A stretch of 57,104 nt of DNA from Macrostomum lignano (Eukaryota). The translations under genes were made by a program, and so were the position numbers. The DNA lies in the NCBI GenBank assembly GCA_002269645.1, contig NIVC01002078.1, forward strand, positions 149,624 through 206,727. The letters are read 5' to 3'. Under the pieces are notes generated by a model that saw only the letters and a list, made by a program, of their open reading frames with translations, had not been told where the DNA came from and ran no database searches. Below, one piece after another: positions 11,171 to 46,500 of the stretch; within the stretch, counting starts at the first letter, position 1; each line of letters starts with the position of its first letter.

Positions 11171-12059
11171 GGTCGTAACTACTGCTCTTTAGCTACAGAT
11201 ATCATTGTAGGCCTAGCCTAAGTAACAAAGTGTACAGACATCATGATCTAGGCCTAGGCCTACACTAGGCCTGCACTGCATCATGCTGAATTAACAATAC
11301 TAAAAAGGCTGATTATAAGCCATTGTTTGTAGTTGTAGGCTTTATTCGGTCTTGTATTTTTATTTCACTGTTGCCCTTAAAAATTGGAACTTAAAATTTT
11401 AATTTAGATAGGGCCTAAACCTAGCCTAGCCCTAGCCTAGCCTAGGCCTATTCTGTTCTATAACATGATAAATATGCCAAGCCAAGGTAGTACATAGGTA
11501 GGGCCCAAATATCTTTATACATACACCACAAAAAACCTGTGGCTAAGCTACAGATTCATCATTACTACAGATTCAAACTCAACAACTGACTGATCATCAT
11601 GAAGACACTCTATTCTCTAATATCACGCTAGTAGGCCTATACCTTGTTAATTAAAGAAGATGTACAGACTGGCATATAAATTCATGCAGCTTAGCAAGTA
11701 CTAGAAAAATAACTTCACTGTTATTTATCCAATACTGAACAAATAACTTTACTTTTATTTATCTGGTACTAGACTAATAGTTACTGCTTTGTTGCAAATG
11801 CTTCTAAAGGCTATTCTTTCTATATCAGATTTTTTCAATAGCTTATAAATAGGAAAGCTAAAAAATGATATATTACATAAAAAATATTTTTTTAATTGTA
11901 TAACAATGATGATAGTGCTTGAACAGTCCTTGAAATCCATCAATTGAAATTCCATGCCTTGAACCCCATCTTTTAAATTGTCTCCAAATTCTTTACAAAA
12001 CTATTCAATTACCATAGTTCATATATTGTTTTCACTGTTTGCAAAAACTGACCGCTATT

Positions 12060-44718: not shown

Positions 44719-45129
44719 CTGGGCCACAGTACACCCAATAAAACGTGCGTGTATGCGTGCGTGCCTGCCTACAGTATCTGCACGCTTGTATGTGCTTAGC
44801 GTGCACGGCGGAATAAAATAGTTCACTTACTGTTGGTTGTCTAACGATATCAGGCCGTAAGTATTACAGCTTTACTATTGGAGAGTGCTAGCAAACCTTG
44901 CGAATATTTATCATTATCTGTATTATAAAACTTGAAGCAATATAAAGCGAACTGGCAGCTCTTGTTATAAAAACATTTTTTTTTCAATTACATACAGTAA
45001 ATTCCAGTCAAATGTATCATATACGAAATAAAGTTTCATATTGAAAATGTTATGGCTCAATAACTAAATTCTAAGCTGACAGCTTAGGCAAGGAAGTAGA
45101 AGGCATGAGGGGGCTTCTGGGACAAAATT

Positions 45130-45350
45130 TTTCACGTCCTCCATAATCCACCTAAATCCATCCATATTATCCCTGACAGAATCAGAAAAAAAAGGGGGGT
45201 CGCACTCGCTCACAAAACGTCCTCCATAATCCCATTAAATCCATCCATATTATCCCCGACAGAATCATAAAAAAAGGGAGGGGTCGCACTTGCTCCGAAA
45301 ACTTCGAACATAATCGTATTAAATCCATCCATATTATCCCTGACAGAATC
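45130..45350. repeat. Two to three imperfect ~105-bp tandem copies
   Basis: aaatccatccatattatccctgacagaatca...ggggtcgcact repeated. Confidence 0.8.
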
Positions 45351-45550
45351 AGTGCATAACAGATGTCCACTAACACCTGTTATGTTCATTGACACCAACA
45401 TCCACCCATAGCATCTTCGAAACAATCGGAAAATAATCTGCATTCTTCTCCCCACATTCAATCCGAAGCGTTGAAACCAGATCCCTAAAACTTTAAATCC
45501 CCTAACCCAGGGTCCTCACCCTTTGAAAAAAAATTAAATTTTCTCTAAAA

Positions 45551-45787
45551 ATGTTTCCAGTTATCTCTCCAGGTTCTTATTACAAAGCGCACGAGCCTAA
45601 TTACAAGAGCAAGTACCAATGCAAACTAGAATGCAGCGAATACATGAGAAAATATTGGCCCGACGTTGATATCAATGTCCCTAATATTAATCAAGCACTT
45701 AAATCTCACTGGTTTGAAAAACACGGAGTAGTCATTAACAATTTTGACAGCTATTATAACTTTGCTGAAGTTATAAGGCAGTTATAG
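45551..45787 (+). CDS. Small hypothetical protein (78 aa), probably element-encoded
   Basis: Intact ORF with the AAAAATG context shared by the viral ORFs. No recognised motif. Confidence 0.5.
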   Translation: MFPVISPGSYYKAHEPNYKSKYQCKLECSEYMRKYWPDVDINVPNINQALKSHWFEKHGVVINNFDSYYNFAEVIRQL

Positions 45788-45975
45788 TAGCCAACTACAC
45801 TACAAGGTTGTACCCTGTAGAGTGCAGACGCAAGATCTAAAAAATACTGACAAAATCATGTGCAGCATAAAGCGGCTCGTATTTGTAAGCGATAGCTTAC
45901 TGATAGTAAAGCTATTTGAACATGGCGCGAATTCCTCACATGGTGGACTAGAAAATGTCGCCATGTGCAAGGGCG

Positions 45976-46113
45976 TATAAATAGCAGTTCCACTCAGCTG
46001 GCTAGAGGTGGAGCCGACCTCGTGTGGCTATGACTGACTGACGAGGGCAAAAAAGCCCAAAACCGGTCTCAGTCTGCCCCGCATGGTTCGATTCCCACTG
46101 GTTACATGATTTT
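45976..46113 (+). promoter_or_regulatory. Pol III type-2-like cassette around the hammerhead: A-box/D-arm-like, B box, T4 terminator; TATA-like motif just upstream
   Basis: tataaata 45976-83; ctcagctggctagag 45993-46007 (tRNA D-arm-like); ggttcgattcc 46085-95; tttt 46110-13. Confidence 0.5.
46032..46074 (+). ncRNA. Minimal type I hammerhead ribozyme fold (G12-to-A variant) within a Pol III-like cassette
   Basis: Stem I gactga(46032-37)/tcagtc(46069-74); core CTGACGA (46038-44); stem II gggc-aaaaaa-gccc (46045-58); AAAA in place of GAAA (46059-62); palindromic short stem III ACCGGT; cleavage triplet GTC ending 46068. Confidence 0.75.
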
Positions 46114-46260
46114 CACGAACGTTCGTAAAAATCATGTGCAGCATAAAGCGGCTCTCAGTGGTTACATGATTTTTACGAACTTTCGTAAAAATCATGTGCA
46201 GCATATAGCGGCTCTCAGTGGTTACATGATTTTCACGAACGTTCGTAAAAATCATGTGCA
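46099..46260. repeat. 60-bp tandem repeats, each with an internal palindrome (~2.7 copies, plus a partial copy at 45852-45878)
   Basis: tggttacatgattttcacgaacgttcgtaaaaatcatgtgcagcataaagcggctctcag; hairpin acatgatttt...aaaatcatgt. Confidence 0.93.
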
Positions 46261-46500
46261 TAACAGGAATTCGCACGAATTCAACTGTGCAAAATAGCAT
46301 TTTTCTGAGAAAGACTAGTGCGCAGTTGGATTCGCGCCATTTCCTGTCTTAACAGGAATTCGCACGAATTCAACTGTGCAAAATAGCATTTTTCTGAGAA
46401 AGACTAGTGCGCAGTTGGATTCGCGCCATTTCCTGTCTTAACAGGAATTCGCACGAATTCAACTGTGCAAAAAAAGCTTTTTTTCTGAGAAAGACTAATG
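46261..46500. repeat. 89-bp tandem repeats (~2.7 copies)
   Basis: Units start at 46261, 46350 and 46439 (taacaggaattcgcacgaattcaactgtgca...). Confidence 0.93.

Follow-up and report, generated by a model that had tools for sequence, protein, structure and literature searches.

Retrozymes of plants are LTR elements that carry a type III hammerhead ribozyme and are moved by Gypsy retrotransposons, whereas those of animals are described as non-LTR repeats with a type I hammerhead and are tied to Penelope elements (PMC4918200, PMC7229834, bioRxiv 10.64898/2026.07.22.740005, in the text available from each). According to the accessible parts of PMC7229834 and bioRxiv 10.64898/2026.07.22.740005, the animal repeats have no LTR, PBS or PPT, their target duplications are larger and of the LINE type (>4 bp), and their GC content is below 50%. 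The Schistosoma repeats Sm-alpha and Sj-alpha contain tRNA-derived sequence beside a type I hammerhead. They are SINE-like, exceed 10,000 copies, and have no LTR, PBS or PPT reported in the available text of PMC2770079 and PMC4918200. Helenus/TRIMp3 elements are miniature non-coding LTR elements with tRNA-like A and B boxes in the LTR (PMC10886601). Pol III transcription is unvalidated for Helenus itself, and no ribozyme is mentioned in Helenus in the accessible text of that paper.

The window analyzed here is a stretch of 57,104 nucleotides from Macrostomum lignano, and it contains a cassette in which a type I hammerhead is placed between A and B boxes. The cassette is a solo LTR, carried as a passenger; this identity is near certain because target duplications and free elements are both present. 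We hold with good confidence the whole explanation, namely that the LTR comes from a 620-bp non-coding retrotransposon whose A and B boxes flank a type I hammerhead, that it is a passenger of a Polinton, and that the free element is likely an animal LTR retrozyme. The small element crosses the divide between plants and animals: its ribozyme is of the animal type, yet it sits in an LTR element that was inserted by an integrase, and the same genome contains a candidate helper. Because animal hammerhead repeats are stated to lack LTR, PBS and PPT in the sources at hand, the element is an exception.

The hammerhead corresponds to 46032..46074 (+) and is of the minimal type I, with A at the general-base position in the window copy, as seen by Rfam, by a descriptor and in the sequence. 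Stem I is composed of 46032-37 and 46069-74, followed inward by the catalytic core (46038-44), stem II (46045-58), the palindromic stem III (46062-67) and the GTC triplet (46066-68), all on the + strand, and the cut is predicted after 46068. This layout with A and B boxes had been proposed from the letters alone, and every part named then was found in its place. The A at 46059 (+), where G12 belongs, had been recognized in that sequence-only reading and suspected to be mis-called. The A is confirmed and is a real variant, common to 11 of 25 Polinton-borne copies.

An Rfam search had been suggested as a check, and it returned the hammerhead below its cut-off: HH9 matches 46020-46092 with 31.8 bits (E 1.9e-5 in a 2.5-kb search), under the gathering score of 52. 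No Rfam family matches anywhere in the window at gathering scores. Matches to miRNA families below the threshold were rejected as palindromic repeats. When a type I descriptor was run with either G or A permitted at position 12, it had one match in the window and none in 200 block-shuffled windows. In the local fold, stem II pairs with a probability of 0.95–1.0, as do the four outer pairs of stem I, and the two inner pairs of stem I reach 0.43–0.67. The overall stability of the 140-nt cassette is not unusual (z −1.56).

The change G12A slows hammerhead cleavage by >500-fold up to about a million-fold (PMC2553840, available part). Of the free copies, 11 of 14 have the complete three-stem core CUGANGA / GAAA / NUH, and of the Polinton-borne copies 12 of 25 do. 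The window copy departs from this core at G12. G is present at position 12 in 13 of the 14 free copies. The core is broken in 13 of the 25 Polinton carriers, 11 with A12 and two without stem III. Because of A12 and the lack of a partner LTR, the window copy is predicted to be near-inactive.

The LTR itself is located at 45884..46103 (+). It is 10 bp shorter than the 230-bp free copies, and 215 of its 220 letters are identical to a free solo LTR. The unit had been thought to start at 45976, but it begins about 90 bp earlier. A TATA-like motif of putative function is seen at 45976..45982 (+); its first letter differs in free copies, and a similar A-rich motif is seen at the same place in an older family described below. 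The A-box-like segment with a 4-bp D-arm-like stem, a degenerate tRNA head, is at 45999..46015 (+) and fits the box A wording TRGCY...YGG (PMC10886601, available text). The B box at 46085..46095 (+) shows the exact Pol III consensus, and most members of the older family retain it with a T run behind it. Neither ARAGORN nor Rfam calls a tRNA at the cassette, where the boxes and the D-arm-like stem remain.

The right-hand remnant of the 5-bp target duplication of the LTR is 46104..46108, while the left copy was lost in the lineage of the window through a 9-bp deletion. The insertion target was a 60-bp tandem repeat with a 34-bp imperfect palindrome (46104..46260). The TTTT at 46110-13 (+), which had been regarded as the end of the unit, is indeed present but belongs to this flanking 60-bp repeat. 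The 10 bp missing from the window LTR include its own TTTT, and this loss is common to all 25 Polinton-borne copies.

A genome search with 45880-46120 yielded 42 candidates, of which the 40 best were scored and all fetched; 39 are copies of the unit, and the other is a diverged hammerhead. Among these 40, 14 copies at eight loci are found without Polinton DNA. The free repeat is 230 bp long (229 bp in one copy), begins with TG and ends with TA. Five of the loci are solo LTRs, among them one on C63, and three are arrays of two, three and four LTRs. In the arrays the LTRs are separated by a 160-bp internal part, every array consists of n LTRs and n−1 internal parts, and the period is 390 bp. The internal part is confined to these three arrays (six matches). 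One 5-bp duplication frames each free locus, perfect at seven of the eight and at 4/5 letters in the other, with three of the eight loci sitting in short tandem repeats, where duplications are less informative.

The two-LTR copy on C3053, at about 95762-96380, comprises 230 + 160 + 229 bp, and its internal part is non-coding. The PBS starts two letters into the internal part and shows 10 nt complementary to the 3' end of the tRNA-Glu of this genome. The pattern for that tRNA end has 36 matches in the genome, and all five that were checked are tRNA-Glu. The complementarity is limited to 10 nt, which counts against the retrozyme explanation. A purine tract (PPT) closes the internal part just before the second LTR. 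The free element has a GC content of 53%, and the hammerhead is present inside both LTRs, together with PBS and PPT. The free element is a 620-bp miniature LTR retrotransposon. It shows the characters of TRIMs: two LTRs, a non-coding internal part, a size below 1 kb, PBS, PPT, and a target duplication within 4–6 bp. Separately, some tRNA-Glu-derived copies end in an encoded CCA and contain an insertion (L150, L152-L154); they are possibly processed pseudogenes.

A pattern for the junction of LTR end and primer site has 38 matches, against two for the control. Eleven of the 38 belong to a 1.8-kb non-coding LTR family, and four belong to a Gypsy family. The full-length tRNA-Glu primer pattern has eight matches, none of which adjoins an LTR; it was the shorter junction pattern that found the partner families.

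Three full copies of this young Gypsy family (C1189, C1878, and C1405) are 13.75–13.9 kb in length, and their LTR pairs are 99.9% identical. The LTRs are about 1036 bp with a TA end, the PBS is for tRNA-Glu, the purine tract is similar to that of the small element, and the gene order is protease-RT-RNase H-integrase. Duplications of 5 bp are seen in all three. This Gypsy family is likely the helper of the small element, because of the shared end features alone (primer site, TA end, 5-bp duplication). It shares no long sequence with the small element and its LTR starts with TA, not TG, both of which count against the role of helper. This Gypsy family also has a fusion-glycoprotein domain of the Monjiviricetes type (PF24664, E 3e-7); it lies after the zinc knuckle of gag and before the protease, which is unusual for an env-like domain. 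The reading frame is a single long frame in one of the three full copies and is split in two.

The 1.8-kb family (L217:1103-2922 and 10 other loci) has a 447-bp LTR. It has the LTR start, the junction of LTR end and PBS, and the purine tract in common with the small element, and no sequence match to the ribozyme-bearing LTR. It was rejected as a helper since it has no internal frame of 200 codons. The 1.8-kb family is probably a second parasite of the same Gypsy helper.

The older family is dispersed, about 240 bp long, with TG...CA ends, and contains the A-rich motif, hammerhead, B box and T-run in the same layout. The 40 best of 278 candidates were scored and 30 were fetched. It is about 70% similar to the LTR of the small element, with the core kept; the columns are 71% alike on average, and the core letters are invariant or nearly so between the two families. 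No second copy is found within about 1.5 kb at the 30 fetched loci, and the target duplications are indistinct. The older family probably represents decayed solo LTRs of an earlier wave.

Covarying stems had been named as a check of the ribozyme. In 13 sequences of both families, none of the 18 pairs has changes on both sides, no compensatory change is seen, and nothing rises above shuffles. In the same 13 sequences, 84% of the stem cells are paired, versus 23–40% when the partners are slid. Most of the older family has a mismatch at the base of stem II (11 of 13 rows are unpaired there), which counts against the ribozyme reading. The predicted dimer has −55.3 kcal/mol with a 6-bp intermolecular stem III, compared with −52.2 kcal/mol for two monomers, and folding predicts no proper closure of stem III in the monomer. 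Dimeric hammerheads of this sort are described for amphibian motifs (PMC7229834, available part). The 390-nt unit from cut to cut, folded as a circle, has z = −5.0, and none of 100 shuffles is as stable.

The unit is present in 20 of 24 rows of sequencing runs, none of which is recorded as RNA, and four runs were examined. Three of them, which come from two studies and are guessed to be RNA, each contain a single 420-nt contig that spans the complete unit with some overlap and whose ends join up. The fourth run, X19, shows the same closing joint, and there the single-copy flank is covered by contigs as well. Because X19 and tandem DNA arrays give the same joint, it is not evidence of a circle. 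In X1, X3 and X8, the runs guessed to be RNA, the single-copy flank is uncovered and the contig of the unit is without Polinton-type letters, whereas in X19 the flank is covered and the LTR contig carries Polinton-type letters. Since contigs drop rare variants, 111 loose ends went unlisted and short RNAs can vanish, this contrast gives a weak hint only.

It can be considered that the small element is an ordinary Helenus-type element whose ribozyme is idle. A SINE like Sm-alpha, with tRNA and hammerhead, would have been inserted in the LTR and given the promoter; the uncut linear RNA would be copied by the normal LTR route, and arrays would arise by unequal recombination. Kojima proposes SINE insertion as the origin of Helenus LTRs, and tandem arrays are noted for a fish Helenus family (PMC10886601, available text). 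Sm-alpha joins tRNA-like sequence and a hammerhead (PMC2770079, in the part at hand). The stems without covariation and the minimal stem III also suit this explanation. However, the core letters are near-invariant across two families in which an average column is far less conserved, the full core is kept in most free copies (11/14), and the unit from cut to cut folds as a circle with unusual stability. Besides, no stand-alone SINE form is seen among 35 hammerhead matches, and the 12 outside the family have the layout of the older family. We regard an idle ribozyme as unlikely.

If the free element is a retrozyme instead, its likely life cycle can be modeled as follows. RNA would begin in the first LTR, by Pol III through the A and B boxes or from the TATA-like motif, with occasional read-through of TTTT. 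The two hammerheads of a transcript would form a dimer through their palindromic stem III, and cleavage in both LTRs would set a 390-nt monomer free. The monomer could be ligated into a circle by the host tRNA ligase; ligation is proposed because cleavage takes away the terminal repeat on which ordinary strand transfer depends. Circularization by tRNA ligase was shown in vitro for other animal retrozymes (PMC7229834, available part). The Gypsy helper would prime the circle with tRNA-Glu, copy round it to make one or several units, and integrate these with a 5-bp duplication. Recombination between LTRs would leave solo LTRs, one of them in the Polinton. Rolling-circle copying would give arrays of 2–4 LTRs inside single duplications, and unequal recombination could also give such arrays. 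The TTTT of the LTR is 26 nt past the cut site and could stop Pol III short of the internal part, which poses a problem for transcription by Pol III alone. Because the element is young (near-identical copies), low-copy and 620 bp in length, the long-presumed step of reverse transcription from a ribozyme-made RNA circle becomes directly testable in an animal.

In its mode of action the small element probably resembles the LTR retrozymes of plants (Cervera et al. 2016, PMC4918200, available part). Both have the hammerhead in both LTRs, a non-coding internal part, PBS and PPT, as well as solo LTRs, 2–4-copy arrays, end boxes shared with Gypsy, and a stable predicted circle. The plant hammerhead is of type III, while that of the window element is a minimal type I (dimer-type) in an animal host. 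The plant retrozymes use tRNA-Met as primer and have 4-bp duplications and a 600–1000-nt unit; here the primer is tRNA-Glu, the duplication is 5 bp and the unit is 390 nt. The tRNA-like boxes around the ribozyme are a further difference of the window element.

The structural definition of Helenus/TRIMp3 (PMC10886601, available text) also fits the small element by sequence, except for the 4-bp duplication of the animal members. Both are miniature non-coding LTR elements with tRNA-like A and B boxes in the LTR and a PPT. The PBS is for the 3' end of a tRNA, and tRNA-Glu is among those used in bivalve Helenus. Solo LTRs, tandem arrays, a size within 311–1263 bp, and a Gypsy helper, proposed for the animal members, are likewise shared. 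In contrast, duplications of the window element are 5 bp (7/8 loci) and those of animal Helenus are 4 bp; 5-bp duplications are reported in the same source for fungal and plant Helenus and for Ajax. The LTR end TA and the hammerhead between the A and B boxes are also different from Helenus/TRIMp3.

Metazoan non-LTR retrozymes share with the window element a type I hammerhead whose stem III is a single pair with a palindromic tetraloop, as in axolotl HHR_Amex1 (PMC7229834, available part). The monomer falls within their 170–400 nt, and tandem copies are seen in both (type I hammerhead repeats of 150–450 bp). They are distinct in that the window element has LTR, PBS and PPT, 5-bp duplications and 53% GC. 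With the Schistosoma repeats the resemblance lies in tRNA-derived sequence next to a type I hammerhead.

Two wasp consensus sequences in the supplement of PMC10886601, Helenus-2_SyJa-LTR and Helenus-2_SyUm-LTR, contain a putative full type III hammerhead 3' of the B box, recognized by eye. Searches of the available part of that supplement with four core variants show no further hammerhead among the matches listed, where line breaks can hide motifs. The two wasp LTRs imply that sequences of this general kind are already deposited and went unrecognized, and suggest a wider, overlooked class. We lean towards the view that animals have true LTR retrozymes: mini-elements with a Pol III promoter that would be self-cleaving, circularizing and Gypsy-copied. 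They might have arisen at least twice: in the window element the hammerhead is of type I and lies inside the promoter, and in wasp Helenus-2 it would be of type III and follow the B box. Their LTRs would be able to travel on Polintons. No animal LTR retrozyme, hammerhead in Helenus, or hammerhead in a Polinton was found in the accessible text of the literature searched, which lay outside most subscription journals and Repbase. The family pattern has no match in viral and none in metagenome contigs, both being collections without animal genomes. A looser pattern of hammerhead plus B box has four viral matches; two are tRNA-Phe genes and two are identical tRNA-like folds, and they were rejected since none folds as a hammerhead.

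The carrier in the window is a Polinton, as had been called from its letters; terminal repeats, target duplication and gene set support this. The 6-bp target-site duplication is at 45089..45094, and the same six letters follow the right end in both contigs that hold the insertion whole. The left terminal inverted repeat (45095..45783, 689 bp) has an inverted copy at the far end of five sister elements. The genes at 46762..56332 include a penton-like ORF, a double-jelly-roll capsid, a packaging ATPase, an adenain-type protease and a protein-primed DNA polymerase. The penton-like ORF was called by position with no Pfam match, the capsid match is below the Pfam cut-off, the polymerase is split over frames, and the contig ends at 57104. 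Integrase and PLA2-like genes are seen in a complete sister copy (~15.3 kb). The characters of Polinton/Maverick elements are found together: terminal inverted repeats, 6-bp duplication, pPolB, integrase, ATPase, protease and capsid.

The cassette had been placed in the terminal region of the Polinton. It is not part of the terminal inverted repeat but lies about 100 bp inward of it, once per element. The 25 Polinton-borne LTR copies share the insertion point, within the 60-bp tandem repeat. The LTR duplication is perfect in one (C864), 4/5 letters in 12, has lost its left part in 11 including the window, and is unparsed in one. These copy counts are inflated because some contigs are duplicates of each other; a single insertion accounts for C2078, C4261 and C1527. 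With a probe from the adjacent region, the 40 best of 298 candidates were scored, and 16 of the 40 matched only the end of the penton gene. Six such copies were fetched; the LTR is absent from all six, and the terminal repeat abuts the penton gene in four. The exact empty site in a Polinton has no match. Insertion of the LTR into the Polinton is indicated by the duplication and by the copies without the block. The LTR is 98% identical to free LTRs, and the insertion is therefore recent. The mosaic LTR alleles of the Polinton copies, together with their differing cargo genes, suggest that Polintons have recombined with one another and with free LTRs. A single LTR was inserted just inward of the terminal repeat and then spread with that Polinton subfamily, in which it is likely a passenger.

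Adenovirus VA RNAs have A and B boxes inside a DNA virus genome, and the cassette had been proposed as a similar viral ncRNA. A Polinton subfamily could have recruited the LTR, either for a Pol III gene of the VA-RNA kind or to cut the 3' end of an upstream viral transcript. In favor of this are the single position occupied in all 25 carriers, even where the upstream gene differs, the low variation of the A and B boxes (5/598 letters off the majority in Polinton-borne copies), and the TTTT 14 nt beyond the B box. Yet the unit is free of Polintons at eight loci, and it is missing from the six fetched copies matched at the penton end only, a kind that makes up 16 of the 40 scored matches. The core is the most changed part, with 12 of 292 letters (4.1%) off the majority in Polinton-borne copies versus 1.0–1.4% in neighboring non-coding DNA, rates taken from related copies and not independent events. 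The hammerhead core is not protected in Polinton carriers, and is broken in 13 of 25. The free loci, the copies without the LTR and the broken cores together fall under the condition that the sequence-only reading itself set for giving up the viral-ncRNA idea. The cassette differs from VA RNAs as a recent host-transposon insert, missing from other Polinton copies and often broken, and the terminator of the LTR itself is deleted. Domestication is very improbable. The LTR is best seen as a passenger, for which Polintons may offer a way to reach new hosts, and not as a new viral RNA. The proposal of a retrozyme riding on a virus, made alongside, was broadly correct, but what rides is an LTR element of low copy number that has PBS, PPT and 5-bp duplications, not a repeat of the non-LTR or Sm-alpha type.

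A Penelope-derived non-LTR retrozyme, forming a 390-bp tandem repeat with LTR-like features by chance, is hardly credible: its type I hammerhead, palindromic tetraloop and 390-bp period fit PMC7229834 and animal retrozymes are derived from Penelope elements (bioRxiv 10.64898/2026.07.22.740005; available parts of both), but every array is n LTRs and n−1 internal parts in one 5-bp duplication, five loci are exact solo LTRs, the end boxes are common to two other LTR families, and the fixed ends and duplications refute spread of the Penelope type, although the hammerhead itself might be of Penelope origin.

Several other features of the window and the sister Polintons were observed. Between the terminal repeat and the penton-like gene, 46104-46500 of the window contains 60-bp and 89-bp tandem repeats with long imperfect palindromes, and the number of tandem-repeat copies is from two to over 20 across sister Polintons. 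These palindromic tandem repeats resemble the hr origins of baculoviruses. In the same variable region, cargo genes differ among Polinton copies: a 347-aa ORF is seen in one group, and a related-looking ORF in another. Wnt genes that match above the family cut-off show the host to be an animal. The host DNA of the window contains a tRNA-Leu gene at 11370-11450 (−), called by ARAGORN and unrelated to the cassette.
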